From the NCBI GenBank assembly GCA_937899865.1, contig CALBRH010000001.1, positions 51,562 through 115,561 of the forward strand: DNA of 64,000 nucleotides, read 5' to 3'. The stretch's first letter is position 1. Every line of letters starts with the position of its first letter. Of the stretch, positions 19,860 through 44,546 are shown one piece after another. This DNA comes from an uncultured euryarchaeote. Lineage in GTDB: Archaea > Thermoplasmatota > Poseidoniia > Poseidoniales > Poseidoniaceae. The position numbers and the translations under genes were made by a program. The notes under the pieces are model-generated. The model saw only the letters and a program-made list of their open reading frames with translations, did not search any database and had not been told where the DNA came from.

Positions 19860-20321
19860 CTAATCGGATTTTTGAGCAATCATATTATTCCTAATTTGCT
19901 TTGCTTTGTCCCATTCGATTTGTTCTTCCTCATTCTCAACAACAAATTGCGGTATAGGGATAGGACGCATCATTGAATCAATCGCAACAAAGAAAAAATA
20001 CCCCTCACAAATCTTTTTCTTATCCCATGTTGCTTTGTCTACTGCCATTGCGGTAACTTTGGAACACGCGGTATGAGTACTTGTGTAGACTACCTTGCCA
20101 GTTACTTCAAGAAGGTCACCTTGCCGCGCTGGAGCGATGAATTTTAGAGTGTCAATTGAGATAGTTACAAATTCCCGGTGAGCAAATTTGGAACAAGAAA
20201 TACCTCCGGCTTTATCCATTATCGATAGTAATTTTCCACCAAACAATGTATCATGGTCATTGGTGTCACCAGGAAAAACATGTTCGATTAATGTCACAGG
20301 CTCTTTAGAGTATGGCTCCAT
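19860..20321 (-). CDS. Acyl-CoA thioesterase (hotdog fold, YciA-like)
   Basis: Motifs VFPGDTNDHDTLFGGKLLSIMD, VTISID and FFFVAID...PIPIP. Confidence 0.9.
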   Translation of the reverse strand: MEPYSKEPVTLIEHVFPGDTNDHDTLFGGKLLSIMDKAGGISCSKFAHREFVTISIDTLKFIAPARQGDLLEVTGKVVYTSTHTACSKVTAMAVDKATWDKKKICEGYFFFVAIDSMMRPIPIPQFVVENEEEQIEWDKAKQIRNNMIAQKSD

Positions 20322-27119: not shown

Positions 27120-27926
27120 ATGTCCTCGAGGATTGGCTGGGAAGATATTGTTTGGGAAGACCCCGATGGAGGAAAAATTGTCCTCCATGGTACTATTCCA
27201 ACAGTGGTTTATCCCCGTAAACTACGCCCTTCAATTGAGTGGCATGGGTTAGCATTGCTTGAGTCTGATGAAGTGGTTGAATTATGGGAGCAGGAAGAAA
27301 AAGATGAAGCAGAATCAAGCGGAGTCAATCTTGCTCATGGTTTAGTATCAGGAGGGACAATGGGTATTTTTCTTGAAGAAGTTACACAAATTGATGAGGT
27401 TACTTCAGGTCGATTTCCTGACCCCGAGCCAAGAAGAGTTCATCGGCTTGCTGTAAGGCACAATCGTCCGATATTCTTCATCGAGCCAGAATTAGATGAT
27501 GAAGATTGGGAGGCACATATGATTGCAGAAGCAAAAGAAGTGTCTCGCTGGAAAAAGCTACTTGGTTTGGTAACCGTTGGCAAAAAATGGCGTAAAAAAG
27601 TAAAACAAAATATTTTCCAAGCAGAAAAACCACCAAAAGGAGTTACCGCCAATCTTTCTTCTGCCGCAGTATTATGTGCAACATGGTGGGATCTAAATGA
27701 GTGGTTAATTGGAGAGACTATTGCCGAAGCGCGTAATCTTCGATTTACATCACGATTACGAGGGGCATTGAAGCAATTGAGAATGGACCATGGTAATGAT
27801 GCAGTTTTACTGGTTCCATTATTCATGCCTTGGCGTAACACTATCTTCAATGAACTCAATAATCTACCAGATGTAGAGGAGAATTCATCAAACAAGACCT
27901 CTAGGCTAGACATGGAGGAAGAGTAA
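27120..27926 (+). CDS. Hypothetical protein
   Basis: 268-aa ORF coupled to the downstream gene by a TAATG overlap at 27924-27928. No confident family. Confidence 0.65.
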   Translation: MSSRIGWEDIVWEDPDGGKIVLHGTIPTVVYPRKLRPSIEWHGLALLESDEVVELWEQEEKDEAESSGVNLAHGLVSGGTMGIFLEEVTQIDEVTSGRFPDPEPRRVHRLAVRHNRPIFFIEPELDDEDWEAHMIAEAKEVSRWKKLLGLVTVGKKWRKKVKQNIFQAEKPPKGVTANLSSAAVLCATWWDLNEWLIGETIAEARNLRFTSRLRGALKQLRMDHGNDAVLLVPLFMPWRNTIFNELNNLPDVEENSSNKTSRLDMEEE

Positions 27927-28459
27927 TGGCTGCAGGTGGAGTTGATGTTAGAGTTGAAAACCAACTGGTTAGATTTGTACCTAAATCTCCAGTCAGTCAT
28001 GATGCAGTAGTCTCTCAATTAGCTGGGCAAAAGAATGGCAATATTGTTGTCAAAGCACTGGAAAAACCACGTGCTACTATTGTAATCGATGAAGAAGGCA
28101 GAATTGTAGTTCATGGCACTAATAGAGTTGAGATTGCACGTGCAGCAGCCAAAGAATTACTCCTTAGGCTGGGTCTTGACGAATCGGGGCTTCAAACAGA
28201 ATTAGGTCCTGTAATTGCATCATTTAATTTTGAACAAGCAGTAGATGTTGAGGCAATGAACAAAGAATTTACCGGCGGGACCTCTACTTTTGATCAAAGG
28301 CTTGGGTGTGCAATTATTCAAGATTCTCGCCATAATTTGAAATTATATGTTTGGCCCAATGGCAAGTGTGTCGCAAGTGATGCTCGTCATCCAAATATGG
28401 TGGCAATGTCAGCAGTATTTTGGAAAACTCAGTTACAAGAAAACAAAATATTTGTGTGA
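27926..28459 (+). CDS. Divergent TATA-binding-protein-like protein
   Basis: Two TBP-like repeats: VENQLV...KPRATIVIDEEGRIVVHG...ARAAAKELL and IASFNFEQAVDVEAM...KLYVWPNGKCVASDA. The length of 177 aa fits TBP. Confidence 0.6.
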   Translation: MAAGGVDVRVENQLVRFVPKSPVSHDAVVSQLAGQKNGNIVVKALEKPRATIVIDEEGRIVVHGTNRVEIARAAAKELLLRLGLDESGLQTELGPVIASFNFEQAVDVEAMNKEFTGGTSTFDQRLGCAIIQDSRHNLKLYVWPNGKCVASDARHPNMVAMSAVFWKTQLQENKIFV

Positions 28460-29353
28460 GTGGATATCATGACCAATCAAGGACTTGCCTGGAAAGGGCC
28501 AATTCTTGATAATCACTTTCATTTGAATCGTAATGGCAGGTTTTTAGACGCTGCCAAGGACTTCAAAAACGCAGGGGGCACAAGCGTAATTTTGGTTCAT
28601 TGTCCAGATTTCTCTGCACCACCTACGACAAAACAGGGTCATAGAGACTCTTATCAAGATACAATCAACATGGCTGAATCGGTTAGAAAGGAATTAGGTC
28701 TTGGAGTCCGAGTTGTGCTAGGTCCTCATCCTGCTGCATTCGCTCATCAATTCATTAAGTGGGTTGAAGAAGATGGAAAAGCAGGCAAAGAGAAAGCGAT
28801 GGAAAATTATCGCGATAGTATCGATGAAGCTGTAAAATTCTATCATGAAGGTCAAGCACACGCAATTGGAGAAGTAGGTAGGCCACATTGGGAAGTATCT
28901 GATGAAATTTGGGATTTATCCAATGAATTGCTGCTTGATACCATGAAACTTGCTGCAAATGAAGGGTTTGCTTTACAATTACATGTTGAAGGCGAATTAG
29001 AATCCACTTACTTGGATATGGCAAAAATGGCAAGTAAGGCAGGGCTTTCTAAAGATCGATTAGTAAGGCATTATTCGCCACCCAATGTAGACTCGACAAT
29101 TACCCAAGGCCTAACTCCTAGTGTATTAATTGGTAAAGGAGCATTGGAAACCTTGCTTGAAACGGCAGACAATTGTAGTCATGGTTTTCTATTAGAAACA
29201 GATTACATGGATGATTTACGAAGGCCAGGCGCAGTACTTGGCCCGAAAACAGTTCCCAAGAGGACTCAACAATTGGTTGCTGCAGGAATTGATGAGGATT
29301 TGATGTGGCGAGCACATGTTGATCTGCCAAACAAATTATACGGCCAAGAGTGA
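28460..29353 (+). CDS. TatD-family (COG1831-like) metal-dependent hydrolase
   Basis: Motifs DNHFH, AIGEVGRPH, QLHVE, VRHY, FLLETDYMDDLRRPGAVLGP and PNKLYG. Confidence 0.85.
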   Translation: MDIMTNQGLAWKGPILDNHFHLNRNGRFLDAAKDFKNAGGTSVILVHCPDFSAPPTTKQGHRDSYQDTINMAESVRKELGLGVRVVLGPHPAAFAHQFIKWVEEDGKAGKEKAMENYRDSIDEAVKFYHEGQAHAIGEVGRPHWEVSDEIWDLSNELLLDTMKLAANEGFALQLHVEGELESTYLDMAKMASKAGLSKDRLVRHYSPPNVDSTITQGLTPSVLIGKGALETLLETADNCSHGFLLETDYMDDLRRPGAVLGPKTVPKRTQQLVAAGIDEDLMWRAHVDLPNKLYGQE

Positions 29354-30622: not shown

Positions 30623-31417
30623 ATGTTGAACCTCAGTGGAAAGACTGCATTTGTCTTTGGTGTTGCTAGCGAAGATTCGATAGCTTGGGCCATTTGTAAG
30701 AGACTTGCTGAAAGCGGGGTTAGTCTTTATCTTGGATATCAAAAGAGATTTAGAAGTCGAATTTTTCAATTGAAAGATAAGTTGCCTCAAATCGCAGGAT
30801 TTTATCCTCTAGATGTTGCAACAGATGAAGATACTAAGGAATTCTTTGATGCTTTTAGTAAAGAAAACCCTGGTAAAAAAGCCGATATCATGATTCATGC
30901 CATCGGATTTGCGCCAAGAACGTGTTTTGACAGGCCAATTTTATTTGTCGAAGACCAAGACATTAATACTGCGATGACAATTTCAGCAAATTCATTGCAA
31001 AGATGTCTCAAGTTCGCATTACCATATCTCAATCCAAATTCATCAACAATAACGCTAACTTATGCTGCATCCAATAGATTTGTTCCATCATACGGTATAA
31101 TGTCGATGGCGAAGGCAGCTCTTGAATGCTGGACAAGAGAACTTGCTTGCCATCTTGGTCCAGAAGGACATAGAGTCAATGCCATTTCATCCGGGCCGAT
31201 TAGAACAATTGCCGCATCAGGTATTCCTGGGTTTGATAATATATTGGACCATGTTGAAAAGAATGCACCTTTGAGAAGGAATGTGAATCAAGATGATGTT
31301 GCTGGTGCGACGTTATGGTTGGCTAGTCCGTTGTCAAGTGGTGTTACAGGACAATGTATCTATGTTGATGCGGGGTATTCAATTACCATGGTGCCAGAGA
31401 CAATAATGGATAATTAA
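30623..31417 (+). CDS. fabI: Enoyl-[ACP] reductase, FabI type
   Basis: Motifs GVASEDSIAWAI, HAIGFAP, LTY, catalytic Y-x6-K (YGIMSMAK), RVNAISSGPIRTIAASGIPGF and TGQCIYVDAG. ATG 30623 preferred over the track start 30563. Confidence 0.9.
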   Translation: MLNLSGKTAFVFGVASEDSIAWAICKRLAESGVSLYLGYQKRFRSRIFQLKDKLPQIAGFYPLDVATDEDTKEFFDAFSKENPGKKADIMIHAIGFAPRTCFDRPILFVEDQDINTAMTISANSLQRCLKFALPYLNPNSSTITLTYAASNRFVPSYGIMSMAKAALECWTRELACHLGPEGHRVNAISSGPIRTIAASGIPGFDNILDHVEKNAPLRRNVNQDDVAGATLWLASPLSSGVTGQCIYVDAGYSITMVPETIMDN

Positions 31418-31426
31418 GGTGATTAT

Positions 31427-34400
31427 TTGAAAATTACAACAGCAGATGGAAAGGTTGCTGAAGGCCTAGAACAAGGCCGTTTTGAGCCAATTGCAGTAAT
31501 TGGACTTGGAGCAATAATGCCTGATGCTAAAGATGTCAATCAATTTTGGCAGAATATCAAAGCCGGCAAAGTAAGCATAAAAGATGTAAAATCAGAACGT
31601 TGGCCAGGAAAAATAGAAGATTTTTGGAAAAACGGTGGACCGGGAGATATTGAAGAAGGATTTACTTATTCGAAAATAGGTGCATTTGTTGAAGATTTTG
31701 AATTCAATTGGCGTCGTTGGCGACAACCTCCAGGGACATTGAAACAAATTGACCCCTGTCAACTTTGGGCTGTAGAAGTCTCAGCAGCAGCTCTTGAGCA
31801 ATCCGGTTATGACGGAGAGTCGAAAGATTTCGATCGTTCAAGATGTGGAGTTATTTTTGCTAATGCACTGGGCGGCGAAAACCGTAACTTGTCAAATATA
31901 CGAGTATGGTCTAATCATACGAAAAATGTTGCATTAAAACACGGTCTGCCACATGAAAATGCTGAAGGTTTTCAAGCAGAAATCGTTGAACATAGTCCAA
32001 GAATTGATGAAGATACTATGCCGGGAGAACTTGCAAACGTAGTCTCTGGTAGAGTAGCAAATTTACTGGATTTACAAGGTCCTAATTATGCAACAGATGC
32101 AGCATGTGCATCATCCATGGCAGCAATTTTGGATTCATGCAGGCAACTTCAAAATCGCCAAGTCGATTTAATGTTAGCAGGTGCATCAGACCGAACTATG
32201 GATCCTGCAACCTTTGCTAAATTTAGTGCAATAGGTGCTCTTTCTCCAAGCCATTCAACTCCATTTGATGCTAAAGCAAATGGTTTCGTTATGGGAGAGG
32301 GTGCTGGAGCATTAGTACTGAAAAGGCTCTCTGATGCGATGAATGATGGAGATACAATCCATGCGGTGATTAGAGGAGTAGGTGGCTCATCAGATGGTAG
32401 AGGAAAAGGAATTACTGCACCAAGTCAAAGAGGACAGATACAAGCGATAGCAAGAGCATATCAACAAGCGGGCTATGAACCATCAACAGTTGAATTAGTC
32501 GAAGCCCATGGGACTTCTACAAAAGTTGGTGACGCCACTGAATTATCATCTCTATCAACACTGTGGGAAGGATTCTCCGGTGGAGATCATGTAGCAGTTG
32601 GCTCAATCAAGTCTCAAATTGGCCATCTGAAAGCAGCAGCAGGAATGGCAGGAGTAATGAAAGCAATATTGGCACTGCATAACAATACGATTCCACCATC
32701 TGCTGGTTTTGAGACGCCAAATCCTACTGTTGATTGGAATAATATTCCTTTCTTTGTTCCAACACAAGCTTCCGACTGGACAAAACCAAATCAACATCCA
32801 CGTAGAGCAGGAATCTCTTCATTCGGATTTGGAGGAACTAATTTCCATATTGCACTCGAGGCATTTGAGGCAGAATATCATCAAAACTTAGTCGAGCAAT
32901 GGAGTTCTAAGTCAGTGTCAAGCGAGGCAACGGCTAATAGTGTAGCATCAATTTTCGATGCTACTGCTAAACCAAGTATGACTCATGAAGAGTTAAAATC
33001 GATTGAGGGCGGACTGTTATTAATTTCAGCAGACAGTGTTGGTGGTTTGACAACAAAGTTGCAAAATTTATCATTTGAGGGGCCATCATTTGATGATGAT
33101 CCATGTGGTCGAAGATTGTCGAGTGAGTTATTTAGCGCTTCACAATTCAACAAAACCGAATCACACAGAATGGCAATCGTTGCTTCAACTTGGCAAGAAT
33201 TCGACAAAAGAGTCGCATTGGCCATAAAAGCAATTGATGATAAAGCCAAATGGGGCTTTTTACAATCTCAAGGTGTGATGATTACTGATGAACCTATATT
33301 GCCAGATGGTGCCAAGATTGCTCACATGTATCCAGGCCAAGGCAGTCAATACGTAGGTATGACTTTTGATTTGTTCAAACGATATACTGCAGTTCAGAAG
33401 GTTTGGGAAAAATCAGATGAGACCATGGTCGATGTATTGGATGGTGAAACTTTATCCAGTTTTGTTTTGCGTAATAATTTGAGCAAAGAGGAATTGATTG
33501 AATCCGAGCATAAACTGAAGCAAACAGAATATACTCAACCAGCAATGCTTACTGCTGATTTAGCAATCGAGAGACTCCTAAATGCGCATGGACAAAAACC
33601 TGACATGGTGGCAGGCCACTCTCTTGGAGAGTATGCTGCATTAATGTCCTCAGGGATACTGAACATGGATGGTGCTTTGCGTGCATCTGCGGCTAGAGGA
33701 ACCGAAATGGGTTCGGTCCAAATTGACGATAAAGGTTTGATGGCCAGTGTGACTGCACCATATTCTGAAGTAGCCAAGGTTTTGGAAGAAACTGAAGGAT
33801 ATGTGATAGCCGCAAACAAGAATTCCCCAAAGATGACAGTGATAGCCGGAGAAAGTGAACCAGTTAAGGCTGCAATGAGTGCTTTTGAGGCAAATGGATT
33901 CTCAACCACCCAGTTAGCTACTTCTCATGCATTCCATTCACGCATAGTTGCCCCAGCCAATGAACCACTACGCAGATTCCTTGAAACACTTGAGATAAAC
34001 TGGCCACAAATCCCAATCACTGCAAATTTCGACGGTGAATTCTATTCAATGGAAGGCGATGATTCAAAGTCTGCGGTATTAGAAAAGTTAGCACCACAAA
34101 TGGCATCATCAGTTGAATGGACTTCACAGATGGAAAAGATGTATGATTCTGGTGCAAGGATTTTCATTGAGGTTGGTCCGAAGCGTGCTTTGACAATGTT
34201 CGCAACTCAAATTTTAGAAGGAAGGCCACACTTGCCAATAATGACAAATCATCCAAAACAAGGTGGCATAGCATCTTTCCTAACTGCTTTGGCAGGAATT
34301 TATCTTGCGGGCAGGGACTTGCAATGGCCAGAACCAACCTCTGAAGAACTATCTGAGGCATTTAAGGCAGGGCCGATTGAAGCGCACACCAAGTCGAAAC

Positions 34401-37400
34401 ATGATGTAAAAACAGTCGAAAAAAGTCCAACTTTGGACAAGTTAGCAACAAATTCATCACAGGTAGTCAAGGCAAATAACGATGTATCAAGAGTCGTAAC
34501 TGAAGTCTCAGTATCAATTGAAGAAGCAATTTCCGCCTATGTAGGAGATTGCCTTGGGCCAATTACTGGTTATCCTGCTAAATTTTGTAGCGGTATGGTA
34601 AACTTGCGTACGCTATTAGGGTTATCAGATCAACAAATCAATCAAGTAATTACTAAGATAGGTAAAGAGTGTCAAACCGATTCAGAATATGATGTAACTA
34701 AAGTAGAGGTAGTTGGAGATTTAGCGCGCTGGATTAGGCAACCACCAAAAAATTACTTGACAAAACAAACCACTACTTTGGCAGCAACAGTATCACAATC
34801 CAATATAGTGGCGAGCAATCGTACAACAGATCCAATAGTGATAAGTGGAATTTCACTTGGTTTGCCAGGTGGAGAAAAAGTCTTTTCAGAAGATGTCTTT
34901 GAGCGATTAGTCCGTGGCGAAACCTGTATTTCCGAAGTTTCAGATGAATATAAGCAGCGTTTGTTAGACAAGAACATTGTTCGACTAATCAAAGGTAGAG
35001 ATGGTTCTGTAAATATGGAAAGTGCAACTGAGTTTGGTGATATTCCACAACTTGCAGGCGTGAAAGGAGCGTTTGATTTAGCACAGGAATTCGGTATTGA
35101 TGCTAAAGTCGTAATGGCTTGGGATATCACTACTCAATTAGCTATGGCAGCCGGTCTACTCGCCCTTAGAGATGCAGGGATTCCACTTACTCCAGTTGAA
35201 CAGGTCGGTAAAGGTGGTTTGAGATTAATTACTAATTGGCAAGTCCCTCAAATTCAAAGAGATAGAACGGGTGTAGTATTCGCCTCCTGTTTCCCAGGTC
35301 TTCAGATGGCGATGAAACATGCAAAGAATAATGGCGATGATGGTGAAGGCCGCTTTGATAGAAGATTTTTGTTCCAAACACTAAATATGGGCCATTCTCA
35401 ATTTGCTCAATACACTGGAATTAGGGGGCCAAATAGTACAATCAACTTGGCATGCGCCTCGGCTACTGCAGCATTTGGTGTGGCTGAAGATTGGATAGAA
35501 ATGGGTCGAGCTGACCGCGTGATTATCATCTCAGCAGACGATGTCACTGGTGATGATTTATGGGAATGGATTGGTGGTGGTTTTGCAGCATCAGGCGCAG
35601 CATCTACGCATAATGTCGTTGAGGAAACAGCATTGCCGTTTGATCGTAGAAGAAACGGTCTGATACTTGGAATGGGTGCAGCTGCATTTGTTGTCGAGAG
35701 AAATTCTCAAGCCAGCGAGCGAGGAGTACAACCTATTGCTGAATTACTTGGCACCACTATTGCAAATTCTGCTTATCACGGTACCAGACTCGATGTTGAG
35801 CATGTTGCTCATACAGTTGATGATTTCATGACAAGAATGGAGGAAAAGTGGAATTTAGACCGGCATAAGATTGCACCAAATACCGCTTTCTTTTCTCATG
35901 AGACCTATACTCCAGCACGAGGAGGTTCTGCTCAATCAGAGGTCAAAGCATTACGGAGTACTTTTGGAGATAGTGCTGATAATTTGGTTATCGCCAATAC
36001 CAAAGGATTCACCGGCCATCCAATGGGAGTTGGAATCGAGGATGCTAGTATGCTTTACGGTATGTTAACTGGCAGAATACCTCCAATTGCCAACCATAAA
36101 GAGATCGACCCAGAACTTGGTAATCTAAACTTATCAAAAGGTGGTGATTATCCTAATCTCGAGTATGGTCTGAGATTTGGCGCAGGCTTTGGTTCGCAAA
36201 TCGCCTTATCTTTTGTCCGTAAATGGGACGTCCAAGGCGATAGAATTGATGGTAAGAAATTCATGACATGGGTTCGCAGTCTTGCTAATTCTAATGATGT
36301 TGTATTACGCTTACTCGACGGTAAATTAGTCTCTTATGTTGACGGAAAAACCAATCTTCATGGGGGCGTTCAAGGTACAGAATGGCCGATTACACAAAAT
36401 TTTGAAGGCGAAGTTTCCGAAATTGAAACGGCCACTCCGCAAATAGTTATTGATGAATCAAAAGAAAATCAAGAAACTGAAATTGAGCAAGTTAAGGAAA
36501 GTAAAGAATCCACGGTAGCAGAGATTCAAAATACGGCTCCTAATGATGTTGTAAATACAGTGATTGAAGTAGTTGTCAAGCATACTGGTTATCCGGCAGA
36601 CTTTGTTGAATTGGATCAAGATTTGGAAGGCGAATTAGGCATTGACACAGTCAAGCAAGCAGAGATAATGGCAGAGATACGCAATATATTCAATTTACCA
36701 GTTGACGAAGATTTCGTTTTAGCAGAATACCCAACACTCAATCATATGATTGGCTACATAGACAAAATGTCTGGCGGTACTGGAGTTGCATTGCAAGCAG
36801 TTGCAACCCCGGTAGTAGTCGCTAAAGAAGCAATCGAAGAGATTGTTACAACACCTCTGCCAACAACACCAGTAGAGTCAACGCCTCCGGCTATTGTTGA
36901 TGATTCGAATTTGGTGCAAATAGTGGTTGATGTAGTCGTTGAGCATACGGGTTATCCAGCAGATTTCATTGAATTAGATCAAGATTTAGAAGGAGAACTA
37001 GGCATTGATACTGTCAAACAAGCTGAAATAATGGCAGATATCAGAACCAAATTTAGTTTACCTGTTGACGAAGATTTCGTACTATCAGATTATCCTACAT
37101 TGAATCACATGATAGCCTACATACAAAGAATGACAGGAGGAGAAGTTTCTCAAACACCATCAAGTGAAACGACAATTACTCCATCGCCACCAGTTGCAGA
37201 ACCTAAAGAATCTCCACAACCTGCAAAATCAGTTGTTGCAGCAGGAGGTAATGAAGAAATAGAGTCCGAATTAATCGAGGTTGTTGTCAAGCACACCGGT
37301 TATCCAGCAGACTTTATTGAAATGGACCAAGATTTAGAAGGTGAATTGGGTATTGATACTGTCAAACAAGCCGAGATTATGGCAGAGGTAAGGGATATTT

Positions 37401-40240
37401 TCTCATTACCAGTTGACGAAGATTTTGTTTTGAGCGACCATCCAACACTCAATCACTTCACAGCTTATATCGTAAAAATGAGTGGAGGAGCAACTGAAAT
37501 TGAACCAACCGTTTCAGTAGTTGAACAATCAAGTGAAGAGGAGATAGTTGCCGAGCAATTATCCATGCCTTCTACCGATTCGCAAACACATACTGAGTCC
37601 AAAAATACAGTATCTGGTTGCCGTAGATGGCAGGTTGAAATTGAAGAGTGTCTAGGCGTTGATGAAAGAATCGAATTATCAGGTACTGTTGTAGTTACTG
37701 ATGATGGCTGGGGTATTGCTGAAGAGATATGTTTGAAACTTGAAGGTGCAGGATTAGAGGCGATTAGAGTAGGCTTTGAATCAGAAATTCGCGATATGTC
37801 AATGCAGAAGGAAGGCTCAAGAACGGTTCTTCGTGCAGATCCTGCAAACATAGAGCATATGGAGCAGGTCAGCAATGAATTAAACAAATCAAATATTTGT
37901 GGAGTGATTCATTTAGCAGCTCTAAAATTAGCCGGAGTAGAATGGGATGAAGATACCTATCCTTCATCCCAAATTGCTTTAGCCGCTCATGGGTGGTTTT
38001 CATTACTAAAGGGATTGGATGAAAAATTAGGTAACCTGGACAAAGGAATTGTAGCTTCAGTTACCACCCTTGATGGCAGACATGGAAATATCGGAGATTT
38101 ATTCAACTCAATCCAGTGTTCGGCTAGCGGAGTTACCAAATCATATTCCTTCGAACAAACACACCTTCGTGCTAGAGCATTGGATTTGCATCCGGAAATT
38201 GTGCTAGATGCGACTCATGCCGCAGATTTAATTGTCAACGATATCCTCAATATTGGTGGTGAAGTTGAGATTGGTATAGACCGAGATGGCAGAAGATGGA
38301 CATTGGTTGCTTTTGATGAAAAATTAGAAGCGGACCGACAACCACTAGCCAACAATGATACTTGGTTAGTGTCGGGTGGCGGCTCAGGTGTTACTGCGGC
38401 GTCAATAATTGGAGTTGCACAAGCGAGTACTGATGCCAATGCACATTTTATCTTGTTAGGTCGCTCTCAACTTATCGAAGAAACTCAAACTTGGATAGAT
38501 TGGAGTGAAGAAAAGCTAGCAGATAAGAAAATGGCATTACGTGAATCCATGATTGAAGAAAGCGAAGATGGTAAAGTTACCATGGTGGATTGGAATCGTA
38601 AATGGCAGAAGTTCACCCGTAGTAGAGATGTTTTCATAACCTTGGATAGAATAGAAAAAACAGGTAACAAAGCAAAATATCACTCGATAGATGTGATGGA
38701 TAAATCTGCTATGATCGAACTTGGCAAAACGCTTAATCGTAAAATTACAGGTGTAATTCACGGCGCTGGTTTGGAAGATTCAAAATTAGTCGCAGATAAA
38801 AGCCATGAAATTTTTGACCGCGTTGTTAGAGTCAAATTAGATGGTTGGAAATCACTAATGGCTGCAGTTGAAAACTCAGGAACAAAATCATTGAAGTTTG
38901 CAGCTTGTTTCACCAGTGTAGCAGGTAGGTTCGGAAATGGTGGTCAAACCGACTATGCTGCGGCTAACAGCGTTTTAGATGCAGAAATGGCACGATTGAG
39001 TGCAAGTGGCAAGTGTCGAGCAGTTGCTATAGGCTGGACTGGCTGGAAAGATGTTGGAATGGCAACTCGAGGCTCGATAGAAGCGGTCTTTGCTGCTGCA
39101 GGAATTGAAACACTGGATGTTGAAACCGGAGTTGAAATCTTTGTTGACGAGGCTCTTGCTGGCGGTAAACGACGAGTTCTAGGTTGTGGTTCACTCGGCC
39201 TAATGGACAGGTTCGATAGTTTTAGAGAACCACCACTTCGCTTACCGTCTGAAATGGCTGCAATAATAGCCGACCCAGCAAGGTTTCCATTACTTGATAA
39301 AGTGATTTCACTCGAGGAGAATAAATCAATCATTACTGAAACCACACTTTCTACCGAACTTCATCCATTCCTTGTCGATCATGCCATTGATGGCGTACCA
39401 TATCATCCAGGAGTGATGGCACTTGAGATGTTTGCAGAGAACTCCTTGTTGATGAAACCATCAACTTGTTTGGCAGGTTTTGAACAAGTTAGCTTTGGCC
39501 TTCCTGTTAAGTTACTAAAAGGTGAAATGAAGGTTAGAATTGTTGCTGAACAAGAAAGAGAGGAGAATGGATTACATTGGATAAGATGTAAATTAGTTTC
39601 AGATTTGACCAATTCTAAAGGAGAAGTATTTGGGGAACGAGAACACCATTCAGCCTTAGTAAGGTTAGTTGAAAAGAGTGATGATTTGTCTGGTTTCTTA
39701 CATTCAGAAGTAACTCAAATGCCCGATATTGGGATTCCAGGTTTAGAAGACTTGGTTTTGATGCCTTCATTCATTTACAAGCGTTATTTCCATGGCCCTA
39801 GATTCCAATGTCATGGTGGCGTGATTAGAGGTGTAGGTGATAATGATACACCAGGCGCAGATAGTATCGCACTAATGCGTAATCAACTACCAATTAGGGA
39901 GCAGTTCAAAGCTGAAGAAAATGGAGGAGAGGTGTTGTTAGAAGCCTTGCCTATGCTAATTGAAGCAGGATTCCAAAATGCTGGTTTTGTGGCAATGGAG
40001 TCAGAAGGCTTCTCTTCATTGCCAATCGGTATTGATTGGTCAACCAACCTGCGCGTGCCCGAGCGTAATGAAATACTTCGAATGAGGAGTTTACGAGTCG
40101 CAGTTGAAGATGCAGGTGTTACAGTTCATGATTTAGTAATAGTCGGGGATGATGACGCACCAGTTCTTGCATTGAAGGGCTTACGATTGAAGAGTATGGC
40201 GCCGGTTCCAGATGAACAACGATTCATTCTAGAACGTTAA
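31427..40240 (+). CDS. Type I PKS/FAS, PfaA-related: KS-AT-(degenerate ACP)-KS-ACP-ACP-ACP-KR-DH
   Basis: KS1 DAACASS (Cys 32105)/EAHGTST/KSQIGH. AT GQGSQ/GHSLG (Ser 33620)/HAFH. KS2 NLACAS (Cys 35453)/SHETYT/KGFTGH. Three ACP repeats ELGIDTVKQAEI. KR GGGSGVT/HGAGLED/QTDYAAAN. DH DHAIDGVPYHPG. RBS AAGGTGAT precedes a TTG start. Confidence 0.92.
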   Translation: MKITTADGKVAEGLEQGRFEPIAVIGLGAIMPDAKDVNQFWQNIKAGKVSIKDVKSERWPGKIEDFWKNGGPGDIEEGFTYSKIGAFVEDFEFNWRRWRQPPGTLKQIDPCQLWAVEVSAAALEQSGYDGESKDFDRSRCGVIFANALGGENRNLSNIRVWSNHTKNVALKHGLPHENAEGFQAEIVEHSPRIDEDTMPGELANVVSGRVANLLDLQGPNYATDAACASSMAAILDSCRQLQNRQVDLMLAGASDRTMDPATFAKFSAIGALSPSHSTPFDAKANGFVMGEGAGALVLKRLSDAMNDGDTIHAVIRGVGGSSDGRGKGITAPSQRGQIQAIARAYQQAGYEPSTVELVEAHGTSTKVGDATELSSLSTLWEGFSGGDHVAVGSIKSQIGHLKAAAGMAGVMKAILALHNNTIPPSAGFETPNPTVDWNNIPFFVPTQASDWTKPNQHPRRAGISSFGFGGTNFHIALEAFEAEYHQNLVEQWSSKSVSSEATANSVASIFDATAKPSMTHEELKSIEGGLLLISADSVGGLTTKLQNLSFEGPSFDDDPCGRRLSSELFSASQFNKTESHRMAIVASTWQEFDKRVALAIKAIDDKAKWGFLQSQGVMITDEPILPDGAKIAHMYPGQGSQYVGMTFDLFKRYTAVQKVWEKSDETMVDVLDGETLSSFVLRNNLSKEELIESEHKLKQTEYTQPAMLTADLAIERLLNAHGQKPDMVAGHSLGEYAALMSSGILNMDGALRASAARGTEMGSVQIDDKGLMASVTAPYSEVAKVLEETEGYVIAANKNSPKMTVIAGESEPVKAAMSAFEANGFSTTQLATSHAFHSRIVAPANEPLRRFLETLEINWPQIPITANFDGEFYSMEGDDSKSAVLEKLAPQMASSVEWTSQMEKMYDSGARIFIEVGPKRALTMFATQILEGRPHLPIMTNHPKQGGIASFLTALAGIYLAGRDLQWPEPTSEELSEAFKAGPIEAHTKSKHDVKTVEKSPTLDKLATNSSQVVKANNDVSRVVTEVSVSIEEAISAYVGDCLGPITGYPAKFCSGMVNLRTLLGLSDQQINQVITKIGKECQTDSEYDVTKVEVVGDLARWIRQPPKNYLTKQTTTLAATVSQSNIVASNRTTDPIVISGISLGLPGGEKVFSEDVFERLVRGETCISEVSDEYKQRLLDKNIVRLIKGRDGSVNMESATEFGDIPQLAGVKGAFDLAQEFGIDAKVVMAWDITTQLAMAAGLLALRDAGIPLTPVEQVGKGGLRLITNWQVPQIQRDRTGVVFASCFPGLQMAMKHAKNNGDDGEGRFDRRFLFQTLNMGHSQFAQYTGIRGPNSTINLACASATAAFGVAEDWIEMGRADRVIIISADDVTGDDLWEWIGGGFAASGAASTHNVVEETALPFDRRRNGLILGMGAAAFVVERNSQASERGVQPIAELLGTTIANSAYHGTRLDVEHVAHTVDDFMTRMEEKWNLDRHKIAPNTAFFSHETYTPARGGSAQSEVKALRSTFGDSADNLVIANTKGFTGHPMGVGIEDASMLYGMLTGRIPPIANHKEIDPELGNLNLSKGGDYPNLEYGLRFGAGFGSQIALSFVRKWDVQGDRIDGKKFMTWVRSLANSNDVVLRLLDGKLVSYVDGKTNLHGGVQGTEWPITQNFEGEVSEIETATPQIVIDESKENQETEIEQVKESKESTVAEIQNTAPNDVVNTVIEVVVKHTGYPADFVELDQDLEGELGIDTVKQAEIMAEIRNIFNLPVDEDFVLAEYPTLNHMIGYIDKMSGGTGVALQAVATPVVVAKEAIEEIVTTPLPTTPVESTPPAIVDDSNLVQIVVDVVVEHTGYPADFIELDQDLEGELGIDTVKQAEIMADIRTKFSLPVDEDFVLSDYPTLNHMIAYIQRMTGGEVSQTPSSETTITPSPPVAEPKESPQPAKSVVAAGGNEEIESELIEVVVKHTGYPADFIEMDQDLEGELGIDTVKQAEIMAEVRDIFSLPVDEDFVLSDHPTLNHFTAYIVKMSGGATEIEPTVSVVEQSSEEEIVAEQLSMPSTDSQTHTESKNTVSGCRRWQVEIEECLGVDERIELSGTVVVTDDGWGIAEEICLKLEGAGLEAIRVGFESEIRDMSMQKEGSRTVLRADPANIEHMEQVSNELNKSNICGVIHLAALKLAGVEWDEDTYPSSQIALAAHGWFSLLKGLDEKLGNLDKGIVASVTTLDGRHGNIGDLFNSIQCSASGVTKSYSFEQTHLRARALDLHPEIVLDATHAADLIVNDILNIGGEVEIGIDRDGRRWTLVAFDEKLEADRQPLANNDTWLVSGGGSGVTAASIIGVAQASTDANAHFILLGRSQLIEETQTWIDWSEEKLADKKMALRESMIEESEDGKVTMVDWNRKWQKFTRSRDVFITLDRIEKTGNKAKYHSIDVMDKSAMIELGKTLNRKITGVIHGAGLEDSKLVADKSHEIFDRVVRVKLDGWKSLMAAVENSGTKSLKFAACFTSVAGRFGNGGQTDYAAANSVLDAEMARLSASGKCRAVAIGWTGWKDVGMATRGSIEAVFAAAGIETLDVETGVEIFVDEALAGGKRRVLGCGSLGLMDRFDSFREPPLRLPSEMAAIIADPARFPLLDKVISLEENKSIITETTLSTELHPFLVDHAIDGVPYHPGVMALEMFAENSLLMKPSTCLAGFEQVSFGLPVKLLKGEMKVRIVAEQEREENGLHWIRCKLVSDLTNSKGEVFGEREHHSALVRLVEKSDDLSGFLHSEVTQMPDIGIPGLEDLVLMPSFIYKRYFHGPRFQCHGGVIRGVGDNDTPGADSIALMRNQLPIREQFKAEENGGEVLLEALPMLIEAGFQNAGFVAMESEGFSSLPIGIDWSTNLRVPERNEILRMRSLRVAVEDAGVTVHDLVIVGDDDAPVLALKGLRLKSMAPVPDEQRFILER
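36545..37490 (+). repeat. Three tandem ACP-domain repeats with Pro/Thr/Glu-rich linkers inside the PKS
   Basis: HTGYPADF.E.DQDLEGELGIDTVKQAEIMA..R..F.LPVDEDFVL..YPTLNH occurs three times with synonymous codon differences. Confidence 0.9.
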
Positions 40241-41007
40241 TGGTGGAATTGATGCAAGAGATTCCAGTTCAATTTGACTCTAATGGTCCAAGATTACTAT
40301 GTTTTATGGCGCCTGTAACTGAATTAGACATTTCTCAAGTGCAATTAGCTAATGCAGATGAGGTGGCTAAGTTTGTTACAAAGAAACGCAAAGATGAACA
40401 TCTTAGTGGTCGTTTACTACTTGAGATGGCACTGGAAAAGTGGGGCATAGATACATCATTATTGGAGGTTAGAAGAAATGAGTTTCGTGCCCCGAGTATT
40501 GCTTATCTGCCAGGTACCTGGGTTAGACATCCCTTACCTTCAATATCAATCGGGCACTCTAACGAGTGGGCCTTTGTTGCGCTAATAGAATCTGGATGGA
40601 CTATAGGAATAGATGGTGAACCATTAGAACTTGAGATCTCTTCTGGCGTTTTTGAATTAATGGCTAAAGGAGAAGAATTAACATATTTGCAAAATAATGC
40701 AGATCAAGCTTTGACTTACTGGACAAGTAAAGAAGCAGTCCAAAAAGCAGCACGCTTAGGTATGAATCTAAATCCACGTGAAATCAAAATTCCAATTGGA
40801 AATAATGAAACTAAAATTCCAATTGAAAATTTAAATTTCCAATTGAAAAATTTATCATTTAATGGATATAATATCAGTGTTGCAATAAGTCAAGGAGAGG
40901 GGTATGATTCTATTCCTGAAGATGATTTGCTAGATCAAACTTTAGAAGCGATGCAAGCGGATGAAGATTGGTCAATTGGTTGTAAAACCACTAGAACAAA
41001 TACCTAG
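40240..41007 (+). CDS. 4'-phosphopantetheinyl transferase (Sfp/PfaE type)
   Basis: Motifs EHLSGRLLL, SISIGHS, IGIDGE and WTSKEAVQKA (WxxKEAxxKA). The ATG overlaps the PKS stop (TAATG). Confidence 0.85.
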   Translation: MVELMQEIPVQFDSNGPRLLCFMAPVTELDISQVQLANADEVAKFVTKKRKDEHLSGRLLLEMALEKWGIDTSLLEVRRNEFRAPSIAYLPGTWVRHPLPSISIGHSNEWAFVALIESGWTIGIDGEPLELEISSGVFELMAKGEELTYLQNNADQALTYWTSKEAVQKAARLGMNLNPREIKIPIGNNETKIPIENLNFQLKNLSFNGYNISVAISQGEGYDSIPEDDLLDQTLEAMQADEDWSIGCKTTRTNT

Positions 41008-41439
41008 TTATTTCCAAAACATGTATTTTTCCCGACTTTCTTCCCAAGGTAAATCTAAGAGTATACCAATTTCAGTTAGAATAACATAGTTCAGCAACAA
41101 GTATGAAATGTAACTAATAATCAATACTAATAGTGAAGTATTGATGATTTTTCTTCTTTCTCTTTTTGCTTGATCAATAGTACAAATTCCTTTGTTCCGG
41201 AAATGAATAATCAAGCCTATTACTACAAAGGCCAAAGCAGATAGTAGCATCAGAGGTCTAAACCAGCCATAACCATCTCCGCCCCAGTAAAGTGTGTCAG
41301 AAAGCGCAGCAGCGGAACTTACACTAGCCAAACCAAATAACACTAAAACAACGCTGGGAAGGCAGCACATTGAAGCGATTAATGCTGACCCAGAAATCAG
41401 TTTAATCAATGATTTTCGCTGTGAAACTTCCTCGGTCAT
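41008..41439 (-). CDS. Small 3-TM membrane protein, MerT-like
   Basis: ASMCCLPSVVLVLFG resembles the MerT TM1 vicinal Cys pair, followed by FRP.. and two further TM segments. RBS GAGGTGA upstream. Confidence 0.55.
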   Translation of the reverse strand: MTEEVSQRKSLIKLISGSALIASMCCLPSVVLVLFGLASVSSAAALSDTLYWGGDGYGWFRPLMLLSALAFVVIGLIIHFRNKGICTIDQAKRERRKIINTSLLVLIISYISYLLLNYVILTEIGILLDLPWEESREKYMFWK

Positions 41440-41448
41440 TACATCACC

Positions 41449-43095
41449 TCAACAATAATTGAATTTGTTCTCTTGTATAGCATTAGTGTATGTTTGTAAC
41501 TGCAAAACCGGTGTTCCATCTGACCATTCACCCATATCTCTAAGCAAAGGCCCATCGATTAAATGAGAATATGCAAATTGTTCAGTATTGTAATCTCCTC
41601 GACTTCTTGCGACTAGCCAATCTGCTTGTGCATCAACTCGCCGATAAAATGCCCAATCAGATAAGGTGTCATGCGCTTCATTAGTAGGTATGTAATGTGA
41701 AGCGACCAGCCTTGGAAATCCATATTTGTCACTTGGAATATATATCAAAATAGAATTGTTTTCTTCTATCATATTGAATAATTTTTGATGATAAACGCTA
41801 TCACATTGTCCAACAGTCATGTCATCCTCACTTACAGCTAAATGTACCATAGTCGCTTCAGGAAGTCCGGTGAAATCTGGCTGCCATAAATCTTGTACTG
41901 GTCTTGATGCAGCCATTTCGGTATTGACTACCAATGTTTGATTGCCCCAACCAAATTCTTGCACCATCTGTAGTGCATGTAGCGAATATGCACCACCTAA
42001 ACTATGTCCTCCTATGTACAAATGCTCAGGCATAATGCTAAGATTTCCGAGTACTGAATCAATTTCAACCCCCCGAGTTTGGTCATCAATAATCGAAGTC
42101 AATAACGTCAAAGCAGAATAAATAGAATACAATCTAGGTATATGATGCGGCCAATCAGAGGTTCCCTCAACTGTTTTGTCATTCCAATCTTCTCCACCTT
42201 CGGGTCTAATATCAGTAGGGTATTGGATATATGCAACAACCATGCCTTTTCCTACTAACCGGTCAATCCAATCTGTATAGGATTCACGACTTGGGTTGTT
42301 GAATGCATGAAAAATAATGGCAAGAGGTACGCCTTCAATACCTGGATTTTCAGGTAGTACAGGTAACGAGAGATATATTGAGAATGTAATATCTTCTTCA
42401 GTATCACCTTGTATTGCTGTGACATTATCGGGTAACGTGTATGGATAAATTTCCAACACTTCAGCAAATGGGCCTGGTTGCCCTCCATATCCAAATGCAG
42501 GTTTATCTGGTGGAGAGGGTGCTATACCTGCAAGTGCTGGAATCCCCGGCATCATCAACCAAGCTGCGAAAAACACGGCCAATAGATGGCTTACTGAGTA
42601 AAAGTTGTCAAAAAATCCGTTATTTGATTTAGGTAATTTTGGAATTCCTCTCGAACCTATTGCACAGGAAAATAAAATAAATCCGTAGAGTGTAGGCAAT
42701 AGTAAAAAAGCCCCTCTTAAATATCTAATATCCATTATTACAAATACTACATATGAGCCAAAAATAAGTCCAGAAAAGAATACTAAAACATGTCTGATCC
42801 AAGCAGGAATGTATTTTTCCTGCTGTCCTCGAATCATCAACCATAAACCAAGACTGAGTACTATTGCACAAAGCAAAGCAACACTTGGAACATTTTGTCT
42901 CAATAAGAACGTAATTTCAAGGGTTCTAATCGCTATAGGCCACACAGCATTTTCAAGACTATTGCCAAGTATGAGCAAATAAATTGTTTCAATAATTGCA
43001 ATAATGGCTCCTAAAGAAAAAATTGCCATTGGAAATATTGGTGCCTGAACAAATTTAGCAAGCACACTTTGTTCGCTATCAACGGCCCTCTCCAT
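41449..43095 (-). CDS. Multi-TM membrane protein with C-terminal alpha/beta-hydrolase domain
   Basis: About five N-terminal TM helices, then IIFHAF, nucleophile elbow GGHSLGG, SEDD and ASH. Start placed at MERAVD. Confidence 0.75.
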   Translation of the reverse strand: MERAVDSEQSVLAKFVQAPIFPMAIFSLGAIIAIIETIYLLILGNSLENAVWPIAIRTLEITFLLRQNVPSVALLCAIVLSLGLWLMIRGQQEKYIPAWIRHVLVFFSGLIFGSYVVFVIMDIRYLRGAFLLLPTLYGFILFSCAIGSRGIPKLPKSNNGFFDNFYSVSHLLAVFFAAWLMMPGIPALAGIAPSPPDKPAFGYGGQPGPFAEVLEIYPYTLPDNVTAIQGDTEEDITFSIYLSLPVLPENPGIEGVPLAIIFHAFNNPSRESYTDWIDRLVGKGMVVAYIQYPTDIRPEGGEDWNDKTVEGTSDWPHHIPRLYSIYSALTLLTSIIDDQTRGVEIDSVLGNLSIMPEHLYIGGHSLGGAYSLHALQMVQEFGWGNQTLVVNTEMAASRPVQDLWQPDFTGLPEATMVHLAVSEDDMTVGQCDSVYHQKLFNMIEENNSILIYIPSDKYGFPRLVASHYIPTNEAHDTLSDWAFYRRVDAQADWLVARSRGDYNTEQFAYSHLIDGPLLRDMGEWSDGTPVLQLQTYTNAIQENKFNYC

Positions 43096-43139
43096 ATGCT
43101 GAAAATAGGGGTTGAGTAAAAAAAAGGTTGTAATTAAAT

Positions 43140-44546
43140 TCAAACATCAACATTACGAACTTCAGGAGTTTGGTCAGCGAGAATGAATTCTAAAAATGCA
43201 GCCCATAGTACATATTGGATACTATTTTTCAATTCTTCAGGCCCACCAACTTCTGCAATCATATTATCAAAAGTGTCTGTTGGTGAATGGTATGCGCTGT
43301 AGTCCTCATCATATGCCCCAAGATGGAAAATTGTTTGAGCCCCGAGGTTTCTAAATGTTACATGATCTGAACGTCCAAAAGTGTCTTCATGAACATCCAT
43401 CACAAGGTTGTAGTGGTCATCCCAGTGTTGGTCACAACCTGCACCATAAGAGCCCTCGATACGCAAATCCATTGGTGCTTTCATAATATCTCGATGAACG
43501 TAATCAAGAATCGTAGTGATGGCAACATCTTGCACCTCTGGATCAAAATCGGGGCCAGACCAAGCATGATACGGGAAATAATCGCCATTAGATTTCTTTG
43601 CTGGATAAGAAATTCCCATCATGTCCATATTGATGTAGAAGCGCAATTCCTTGTCTTTTGGTAAACAATAATCACAATCGTTGTTGGCGAATGCATTTGA
43701 CCCTCTCAAGCCTGCTTCTTCACTTGACCAAAGAGCAAGGAAGGTATCACATCTTACTTCAACATCAAGCAGCGCTTTAGCATACAACATTATTGCAACA
43801 GTTCCTGCAGTGTTGTCGTATGCTCCTTCATAAGTCCCGCCGCCTGGAGGTCCAGCAGGCGGTGCGATATCCATATGTGCACCAATGCCTTGAACGCAAG
43901 AATCATCATAGCCACGTTTCCAAGCGATAACATTCAAGCTTTCAGGCTGGGTTAAACTGAAAGTATCGGTAACTCTCATCAAATGTGTTTCATATCCAAG
44001 GCCTTCAAAATGCCCGTGGAAGAATGAAGCGGCTCTCTCAAATGCTGGATTTGGTGATCCCATCCACCTGTTGATATAGCCGCCACACAAAGTAGAATCA
44101 GTACACACACTGGTAATGAAATCCATCTTTTCGAACCATTCCGAGCCACTGATAATTACCTCGCCCTCAGCAATAGTGTATTCGAATGACTTGCCTTTGC
44201 CGTTAGCCTCTACTATAGTTATGCTAACTTCTTCAGCATAGGGAATCGGTAATAATTTTCCATTAATCTGTTCATCTTCGACAACCGCATAACCGTTTGG
44301 AATCACAATATCATCAATAAACATCATGACATTATTTGGCACTGAAATAGACCTACCCTTGCCGGCAAGGAAGAATGTATGCCATTCTCCTCCACGTAAT
44401 TCAGCATCATTAGCATCAGTAAAGTCAATTTGGAAACCAGCAACATCATAGTCGCTATCAGCAGAATCTTCTCCAAAACATCCTGACATTGAAGCGCTGA
44501 AAAAAACTAGCACAAGTAAGATGCTTTTCAATGCATTACTCTGCAT
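43140..44546 (-). CDS. M28-family metallopeptidase, secreted/lipoprotein-like
   Basis: Motifs GAHMD, YDNTAG, SEEAGLRGS, INMDM, RSDH and YHSPTD. N-terminal signal ending in SGC. Confidence 0.88.
   Translation of the reverse strand: MQSNALKSILLVLVFFSASMSGCFGEDSADSDYDVAGFQIDFTDANDAELRGGEWHTFFLAGKGRSISVPNNVMMFIDDIVIPNGYAVVEDEQINGKLLPIPYAEEVSITIVEANGKGKSFEYTIAEGEVIISGSEWFEKMDFITSVCTDSTLCGGYINRWMGSPNPAFERAASFFHGHFEGLGYETHLMRVTDTFSLTQPESLNVIAWKRGYDDSCVQGIGAHMDIAPPAGPPGGGTYEGAYDNTAGTVAIMLYAKALLDVEVRCDTFLALWSSEEAGLRGSNAFANNDCDYCLPKDKELRFYINMDMMGISYPAKKSNGDYFPYHAWSGPDFDPEVQDVAITTILDYVHRDIMKAPMDLRIEGSYGAGCDQHWDDHYNLVMDVHEDTFGRSDHVTFRNLGAQTIFHLGAYDEDYSAYHSPTDTFDNMIAEVGGPEELKNSIQYVLWAAFLEFILADQTPEVRNVDV

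Follow-up and report, generated by a model that had tools for sequence, protein, structure and literature searches.

A putative self-contained type I fatty-acyl synthase operon with threonine carrier sites in marine Poseidoniales archaea

A stretch of 64,000 nucleotides from an uncultured archaeon of the Poseidoniaceae (contig CALBRH010000001.1 of assembly GCA_937899865.1), hereafter called the window, was analyzed with respect to an operon of three genes at positions 30623 to 41007, which encode a FabI-like enoyl reductase, a type I megasynthase and a 4′-phosphopantetheinyl transferase (PPTase). Archaea are defined partly by their isoprenoid ether membranes and are said to lack acyl carrier protein (ACP) and ACP synthase. 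The Poseidoniales, also called marine group II (MGII), are the most abundant planktonic archaea of surface waters. From the domain content, the genomic context and the distribution of the operon, we consider it probable that it encodes a native, self-contained iterative type I fatty-acyl synthase, namely an archaeal version of the synthase family described in bacteria as Type R. The source genome has a size of 2.0 Mb and is 91% complete, and all absences from the genome reported below refer to this assembly.

Organization of the operon and domains of its products

Domains were called by Pfam and NCBIfam profile searches, and motif conservation was read in alignments of 28 to 60 archaeal and bacterial homologues. 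The following genes and domains were assigned, with amino acid (aa) positions referring to the megasynthase:

30623..31417 (+), FabI-like enoyl reductase of the SDR (short-chain dehydrogenase/reductase) type, first operon gene (open reading frame, ORF, 30563/30623-31417)
31427..40240 (+), predicted iterative type I megasynthase, 2937 aa, KS1-AT-(decayed ACP)-KS2-ACP x3-KR-DH
31484..32710 (+), first ketosynthase (KS1), aa 20-428; Pfam ketoacyl-synt and Ketoacyl-synt_C; Cys227/His362/His401-type triad
33326..34219 (+), malonyl-type acyltransferase (AT), aa 634-931; Pfam Acyl_transf_1 4.6e-38; TIGR00128 FabD 1.5e-59
34514..34741 (+), decayed ACP-like segment between AT and KS2, aa ~1030-1105
34829..36346 (+), FabF-like second ketosynthase (KS2) between AT and carriers, aa 1135-1640
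36539..37456 (+), three tandem carrier domains; PP-binding x3 above the Pfam cut-off; Thr1741, Thr1862 and Thr1978
38354..39061 (+), ketoreductase (KR), catalytic subdomain, aa ~2310-2545; Pfam KR 1.4e-25 (KR at aa 2401-2542)
39287..40237 (+), dehydratase (DH) of the polyketide synthase (PKS) type, double hot-dog, aa 2621-2937; Pfam PKS_DH_N 7.7e-9
40240..41007 (+), Sfp-type PPTase, 255 aa; Pfam ACPS

The in-frame ATG of the reductase gene at 30623 carries AGGTGG just upstream, and its TAA stop (31415-31417) is separated from the TTG start codon of the megasynthase gene at 31427 by a gap of 9 nt (GGTGATTAT; stop and gap together TAAGGTGAT). At the other end of the megasynthase gene, at 40240, its stop overlaps the ATG of the PPTase gene (40240) as TAATG, and the PPTase is predicted to be translationally coupled to the megasynthase. 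A convergent gene starts at 41008, next to the PPTase stop at 41007. The initial annotation, which was made from the letters of the window, had described three co-oriented and tightly coupled genes with these two junctions, and all of this was found at the same coordinates. Its enzyme inventory, comprising a KS, a malonyl-type AT, a second KS, three ACPs, a KR, a DH, an enoyl reductase acting in trans and a PPTase, agrees with the Pfam and NCBIfam matches and with the motifs.

In the megasynthase, the KS profile scored 1.8e-73 (Pfam), and the KS1 motifs DAACAS, EAHGTS and QIGHLK are kept in 28/28 aligned sequences. The AT motifs GHSLGE and HAFHS are conserved among the homologues, HAFH(S/T) being the malonyl type. 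The segment between AT and KS2 reads ...TGYPAKF...LGLSDQQ..., lacks an acceptor Ser or Thr in register and is poorly conserved; bacterial homologues show VG[IL]DAL at this position, with Ala at the acceptor site. The segment may be a fusion relic or a docking element. KS2 has FabF (4ddo, 4.6e-26) as its best match in the PDB and reads NLACAS, SHETYTP and KGFTGH. The contexts N.ACAS, SHETYTPARG and KGFTGH are unusual, and N.ACAS, SHE[TP]xTPxRG and KGxTGH are kept in all 28 of 28 sequences. Since the Cys-His-His triad is intact, KS2 is regarded as a second ketosynthase and not as a Cys-less chain length factor (CLF). In the KR, Ser2497, Tyr2510 and Asn2514 together with the Gly-rich loop are kept in 57-58 of 58 filled alignment rows, and in the DH the motif His2652-x3-Gly-x4-Pro is kept in 53-58 of 58 rows, with PS-DH matches present in homologues.

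The FabI-like protein matches Pfam adh_short_C2 over the full length of the model (1-236 of 236; 2e-68) and carries a Tyr-x6-Lys motif (...PSYGIMSMAKAALE...). A fused FabI in bacterial homologues was considered and rejected, because the precomputed PF13561 matches in these proteins correspond to the KR domain only. The PPTase reached 29.2 bits with Pfam ACPS against a cut-off of 25 bits (1e-6), with additional weak matches to 4PPT_N and to the HetI model, and contains the motifs IGIDGE, WTSKEAVQK and ISIGHS, the last being the P1b′ motif hShxH.

The operon appears to be the only system of its kind in the 91% complete genome: no PP-binding domain was found outside the synthase, no other PPTase, no FabA/FabZ and no other true KS, with only two weak thiolase-like matches. 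For the supply of malonyl-CoA, a biotin carboxylase (14791-16131, +) and three carboxyltransferases encoded in the genome could serve. As a side observation, several genes related to CoA or acyl metabolism lie in the window without adjoining the operon; besides the biotin carboxylase gene, these are a fused cytidylyltransferase/DUF359 gene of archaeal CoA synthesis (7808-8830, +) and an enoyl-CoA hydratase gene (1434-2300, +).

Native origin, selection and distribution in the order

The enzyme family is otherwise mostly bacterial, which would fit an artefact of assembly or binning with a bacterial fragment joined to archaeal DNA. The window neighbours are archaeal, including Cdc6/Orc1, a TATA-binding protein (TBP)-like protein and a DUF359 dephospho-CoA kinase fused to a cytidylyltransferase, and the composition of the operon is that of the genome: its GC content at third codon positions (GC3) of 0.292 falls on the 54th percentile among 857 ORFs of the genome, with a codon usage correlation of r = 0.95. 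A break in composition, proposed by the initial annotation as a sign of a chimera, was looked for and was not seen in these values. In addition, the same gene order between the same archaeal neighbours was found in about 50 independently assembled Poseidoniales loci, among them one on a contig of the single-cell genome AG-404-K16, one in a genome that consists of a single 2.06-Mb contig and one on a contig of 1.53 Mb. The nearest homologues and loci carry the names Candidatus Poseidoniales, Poseidoniaceae or Poseidonia sp. An artefact thus has next to no probability in our view, and the earlier remark that, with archaeal flanking genes, a chimera is not the obvious explanation is borne out by composition, selection and recurrence across hundreds of independent assemblies, one of them a single-cell genome.

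To cover the order, 400 Poseidoniales genomes were surveyed, including 199 of the Poseidoniaceae (f1, the family of the window), 2 of a family f2 and 198 of a family f3, which is probably Thalassarchaeaceae. The synthase was found in 263 of the 400 genomes, among them 191/199 in f1, covering all 12 f1 genera, 2/2 in f2 and 69/198 in f3, where whole genera either have or lack it. For the analysis of synteny, which the initial annotation had recommended as a check, 80 named loci were compared by blastp, together with 18 others. Both large families (f1 and f3) show the order TBP-like gene, TatD, FabI, synthase, PPTase, which is shared by a deep-branching relative (P0071). The PPTase gene lies directly 3′ of the synthase in the Poseidoniales loci that reach far enough, two of which gave no blastp match for it; in one homologue the PPTase is fused to the synthase.

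The FabI-like gene is single-copy and always adjoins the megasynthase gene. In 69 genomes with a completeness of at least 90%, the genera that have or lack it are exactly those that have or lack the synthase. Because of this co-distribution and constant adjacency, the FabI-like protein is assigned to the synthase system. Among the loci compared by blastp, this adjacency is limited to the Poseidoniales and one other archaeal family. No FabI gene was found beside the synthase in 20 bacterial loci searched by blastp or in three bacterial contigs with called genes; the bacterial loci have an acyl-CoA dehydrogenase/electron transfer flavoprotein (ETF) set, or nothing, in its place.

Selection on the operon was measured as dN/dS against the closest orthologue (dS about 0.35-0.40). 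The ratio was 0.016 in FabI, 0.065 in the megasynthase and 0.106 in the PPTase, and each domain of the megasynthase lies at 0.02-0.16 (KS2, 0.044). With these low ratios and the catalytic motifs kept, relaxed selection or a pseudogene, which the initial annotation had raised as a possible objection, was rejected.

Synthase-negative genera retain the 268-aa ORF, the TBP-like gene and TatD, followed by the gene that lies beyond the PPTase gene in a positive relative; at the same locus they lack exactly the three operon genes. In a tree of KS1+AT+KS2 (1321 columns, LG+G4, quick search, unrooted), the sequences of the order form one clade (support 100), in which both large families, MGIIa (100) and MGIIb (99), are monophyletic, so that the tree mirrors the family structure. 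These data are most simply explained if the three genes were acquired once, before the diversification of the order, and were later cleanly lost from some lineages with small genomes. Several further families of the phylum also have homologues (41-47% identity), which form two additional clades among bacterial sequences. A single origin of all archaeal copies was rejected by the approximately unbiased (AU) test (delta lnL 397, p = 8e-13), the group tested having been picked after the tree was seen. Because holding the archaeal sequences together is rejected, more than one transfer between domains is concluded. As the tree is unrooted, the donor cannot be named.

The conserved block directly upstream of the operon throughout the Poseidoniales consists of the 268-aa ORF, the TBP-like protein (weak TBP match, 2.7e-7) and a TatD-family hydrolase (27120-29353, +), and it is kept unchanged in genera that lost the synthase (loci L123-L126). 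Further upstream, a 1980-aa ORF without Pfam match (21167-27109, +) lies, in this lineage, between a gene for a 4HBT thioesterase and this block.

Relationship to known synthases and threonine at the carrier sites

Type R synthases were defined by a pfaA homologue of the order KS-MAT-CLF-ACP(3-6)-KR with a downstream PPTase, their product being uncharacterised, and were reported from Koribacter versatilis, Solibacter usitatus, Elusimicrobium minutum and Roseiflexus spp.; archaea are not mentioned in that paper (Shulse & Allen 2011, PLoS One 6:e20146, PMC3098273). The operon fits an archaeal, FabI-equipped variant of this class of secondary-lipid synthases. Its domain order corresponds to KS-MAT-second KS-ACP(3)-KR, the PPTase gene lies directly downstream and encodes the P1b′ motif as ISIGH, and homology is collinear over the full length to proteins of Korobacteraceae, Elusimicrobiales, Bryobacteraceae and Anaerolineae, with identities of 43-54% for KS1 and 47-52% for KS2. 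The Korobacteraceae locus has an acetyl-CoA carboxylase (ACC) gene between synthase and PPTase, as described for Koribacter (PMC3098273). In the tree, which was calculated without an outgroup of other Pfa types and without the five Type R type strains, the archaeal synthase groups with Korobacteraceae, Sulfotelmatobacter, Bryobacteraceae and Elusimicrobiales. The archaeal system differs from Type R in four respects: its host has neither a fatty acid synthase of type II (FAS II) nor any other ACP in the 91% complete genome; a dedicated FabI gene heads the operon and is lost together with the synthase; the domain named CLF in Type R keeps its active-site Cys and is a second KS; and the C-terminal DH is not part of the 2011 scheme.

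The initial annotation had compared the domain order with that of PfaA. The order KS-AT-ACPn-KR-DH is indeed shared, as are the PKS-type DH on the same polypeptide, the iterative mode, an Sfp-type PPTase (PfaE) and an enoyl reductase in trans within the pfaABCDE system, but the protein is not a PfaA proper, and Type R is closest. The PfaA model TIGR02813 gave 878.2 bits, below its cut-off of 1010.1. The partners PfaB, PfaC (KS-CLF-FabA-type DH x2) and PfaD were not found: the 91% complete genome holds no further KS and no FabA/FabZ domain, and the neighbouring genes are unrelated. Without these partners, cis double bonds are not expected. Furthermore, the enoyl reductase is an SDR-type FabI here and FMN-dependent in PfaD, the archaeal polypeptide contains an extra KS, and its carriers have Thr where those of PfaA have Ser (LGIDSIKRVEI).

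Two other systems were compared. The fatty acid synthase complex of Sulfolobus acidocaldarius (ketothiolase/DUF35/SDR/MaoC; bioRxiv 10.1101/2024.07.05.601840) shares the proposed formation of fatty acids de novo in an archaeon; it is, however, CoA-based and consists of dissociated enzymes without ACP or PPTase, so that its design is opposite to that of the MGII operon. The type I FAS found in Corynebacterineae, fungi and animals are likewise multidomain, ACP-dependent, fully reducing and iterative and can be the only fatty acid source of a cell, whereas they belong to a different family with another domain order, an integrated enoyl reductase, a release domain (thioesterase or malonyl/palmitoyl transferase) and a single Ser-bearing ACP.

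The loci of bacterial relatives give further hints on function. In Acidobacteria (Sulfotelmatobacter and Korobacteraceae; loci L112-L115), an FeS/CCG oxidoreductase, ETF alpha and beta and a 560-aa acyl-CoA dehydrogenase are encoded upstream of the synthase, and a 1870-aa eukaryote-like multidomain ACC and the PPTase downstream, with a wax ester synthase/diacylglycerol acyltransferase (WS/DGAT) gene nearby in one genus. In Elusimicrobiales, the synthase gene is followed by genes for the PPTase and an ACC carboxyltransferase. Because these relatives sit with ACC, WS/DGAT and ETF/acyl-CoA dehydrogenase genes, the family appears to follow the logic of bulk fatty chains rather than that of antibiotics. 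In the acidobacterial loci, an ETF-linked enoyl reductase may replace FabI.

All three archaeal carriers read LGIDTVK and thus have Thr where canonical PF00550 has the phosphopantetheine-acceptor Ser; in alignments with the solved PigH and actinorhodin (act) ACPs, it takes the place of their phosphopantetheinyl Ser. Neither this Thr nor the decayed segment between AT and KS2 had been mentioned in the initial annotation. To survey this residue, samples were seeded on KS2 and are therefore independent of the carrier motif. In 98 proteins, 244 carriers with Thr were counted versus 7 with Ser, and 150 representatives of 554 clusters (E <= 1e-30) gave 325 versus 18. Thr at the carrier site is therefore the norm in the family, and it exchanges only with Ser. 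Three MGIIb orthologues (L022, L024 and L083) have LGIDSIK as point variants in otherwise near-identical carriers, and in one protein from another lineage of Thermoplasmatota (L017), five Thr carriers stand beside a single Ser carrier. Since the sole PPTase is under purifying selection and these domains are its only conceivable substrates, we infer that the carrier Thr accepts phosphopantetheine.

The lack of the canonical Ser in 3/3 carriers, together with the lack of a precedent for Thr priming in the searchable literature, would also be expected if Thr could not be phosphopantetheinylated and the system were catalytically dead, with the genes being relics or serving a non-enzymatic role. 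This is opposed by the dN/dS of 0.02-0.16 in every domain with all catalytic residues kept, by the retention of the only PPTase of the genome in coupling with the synthase, and by the fixation of Thr in hundreds of homologues with swaps only to Ser, so that we regard a dead system as highly improbable. With one PPTase and Thr-only carriers, the genome provides a clean setting for the question of Thr-linked phosphopantetheine, and the Ser variants are useful natural controls for carrier priming.

Predicted reaction sequence, product and alternatives

According to the best reading of the domain content, the operon encodes an iterative, fully reducing fatty-acyl synthase. The PPTase would attach phosphopantetheine to the three carriers at the conserved Thr, and the AT, judged by GHSLGE/HAFH, would load malonyl units from malonyl-CoA. 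KS1 and KS2 would carry out decarboxylative condensations, probably on different ranges of chain length or with one priming and the other elongating. Each beta-keto intermediate would be reduced by the KR and then dehydrated by the PKS-type DH in cis, and the separately encoded FabI would reduce the enoyl-ACP in trans. Because a FabA-type isomerase and a methyltransferase are lacking and the AT is malonyl-only, the operon is predicted to make a straight fatty acyl chain, either saturated or largely so. A function as fatty-acyl synthase is well supported by the domain anatomy and the genomic context, while activity, Thr priming, product and destination of the chain are predictions.

The initial annotation had called the system a complete iterative acyl-chain synthase. 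This holds for chain building, for which all domains are present, and does not hold for release, as no release enzyme was found. Four neighbouring genes were considered for this role and rejected. An upstream ORF of 363 aa encodes a secreted, membrane-anchored acidic protein. The 143-aa convergent ORF encodes a small membrane protein, the 564-aa ORF a membrane-anchored alpha/beta-hydrolase (GHSLGG) that is only patchily syntenic within MGIIa, and the gene of the 4HBT thioesterase (19860-20321) remains a neighbour in genomes without the synthase. None of the four genes shows a specific tie to the synthase. The following features were noted downstream of the operon:

41008-41439 (-), 143-aa protein with a Cys-Cys pair in the first of its three or four membrane helices and a weak MerT-like match (0.006), conserved in place in MGIIa
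41449-43143 (-), 564-aa protein with several N-terminal membrane helices, an alpha/beta-hydrolase-like C-terminal part and no Pfam match, its gene converging on the synthase operon and overlapping an M28 peptidase gene (43140-44546, -) by 4 nt
44747-50263 (-), 1838-aa subtilase (Peptidase_S8 1.9e-41)

Because no thioesterase is present, transfer of the chain from the carrier to an acyltransferase, probably directly, is proposed. A candidate for passing the chain on to a lipid is a PlsC-like protein from another part of the genome:

G000:C63:31025-32674 (+), 550-aa protein with an N-terminal PlsC-type domain and an unannotated C-terminal half

Strong orthologues of this protein were seen only among synthase-positive genera, namely in the genera g1, g12, g13, g14 and g16 and in the MGIIb genera g3, g4, g9, g11 and g24. 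None were found in g5, g7, g8, g10 and g25, and they are also missing in the synthase-positive genera g2, g6, g15 and g18. Owing to this partial association, the protein is a candidate acceptor enzyme and has to be taken as a lead, not as evidence.

Several observations weigh against the synthase being a fatty-acyl synthase that feeds lipids. No thioesterase or other release enzyme was found in or next to the operon, and no bacterial family member has a known product. Proteins of the PlsC type (PF01553) occur in 166/166 genomes regardless of synthase status; a dependence of PlsC on the synthase was accordingly rejected, these proteins being present in genera without the synthase. Six MGIIb genera lack the system, which is thus dispensable. 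The FabI-like protein stays below all 13 NCBIfam FabI equivalog cut-offs (3e-65; best NF005615, 220 vs 391 bits), and from these scores it is assigned to a divergent FabI-like lineage. For the carriers, no description of phosphopantetheine on Thr was found in the searchable literature, and to our knowledge E. coli ACP with the exchange S36T is not modified by AcpS.

Instead of a fatty acid for bulk lipids, the synthase might make a specialised metabolite from the secondary lipids or polyketides, for which heterocyst glycolipids and the phenolic lipids of Azotobacter serve as examples. Such a product could be a very long chain, a lipid with a hydroxy or keto group, a polyene, or an alkyl chain attached to another head group. 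The family carries the label "secondary lipid" synthase by definition, specialised C22-C32 chains are made by related types, two active KS with tandem ACPs are typical of Pfa/Hgl systems, genome miners label the cluster T1PKS/hglE-KS, and several MGIIb genera lost the synthase, as is often the case for accessory pathways. On the other hand, the synthase occurs in nearly all Poseidoniaceae and is held by strong purifying selection as a core gene would be, its dedicated and co-inherited FabI argues for full reduction, the bacterial relatives are tied to ACC and WS/DGAT with bulk lipid functions, and no tailoring gene, type III PKS, glycosyltransferase or exporter is coupled to the operon. A specialised product is therefore judged rather unlikely, and the fatty-acyl synthase is preferred.

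Another role would be the supply of a cofactor, with octanoyl-ACP being delivered for lipoate via LipB and LipA as by the mitochondrial FAS II. The respective genes were identified in the genome:

G000:C23:30987-31514 (-), LipB, octanoyl-[ACP] transferase family
G000:C23:43128-44003 (-), LipA

Both proteins exceed their cut-offs (LipB, 118 vs 83.55 bits; LipA, 353 vs 310 bits), and the ACPs of the synthase are the only ACP domains in the genome. However, LipB was detected in 64/69 Poseidoniales genomes including every genus without the synthase, and three tandem carriers, with up to six in relatives, suggest a high flux. Octanoyl-ACP supply as the main role is very unlikely, as LipB is kept where the synthase is missing. 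As a side observation, LipA genes were noted along with LipB in Poseidoniales genomes, also in synthase-negative genera, whose lipoylation does without the synthase.

For MGII, the lack of glycerol 1-phosphate (G1P) dehydrogenase and the presence of glycerol 3-phosphate (G3P) dehydrogenase and PlsC homologues have been reported, and mixed membranes have been considered possible (Rinke et al. 2019; Besseling et al. 2020). The MGII literature also mentions "bacterial-like fatty acid genes", and the membrane lipids of Poseidoniales are described as unknown. Type I PKS (T1PKS) ranked second in frequency among the cluster classes of marine archaeal genomes in one unretracted genome-mining survey; T1PKS/hglE-KS clusters have been listed in Poseidoniaceae, the survey naming them being a retracted paper, and PKS transcripts from metagenome-assembled genomes of Thermoplasmatota were reported from the Cariaco Basin. 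The initial annotation had left open whether the cluster was already described: it is listed as T1PKS in mining surveys, while no analysis of it was found in the papers that could be opened.

As a tentative suggestion, for which we see less than an even chance, MGII may make straight-chain fatty acids de novo with this operon as their only ACP system, on Thr-linked phosphopantetheine, and esterify them by PlsC-type enzymes to the G3P backbone that they are known to form. The operon may be the unexplained source of fatty acids in these archaea, and it offers a concrete and testable enzyme for the MGII lipid puzzle. It is also the smallest self-contained member of the Type R family, consisting of synthase, FabI and PPTase. 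As the synthase belongs to the core of one family and some streamlined genera have lost it cleanly, lineages with and without it allow natural comparisons by lipidomics. If the suggestion is true, the whole family in bacteria and archaea, with at least 554 clusters at 50% identity, would use an undescribed Thr-linked attachment of the cofactor, and membranes of a bacterial or chimeric type would be formed naturally by the most abundant planktonic archaea in ocean surface waters.

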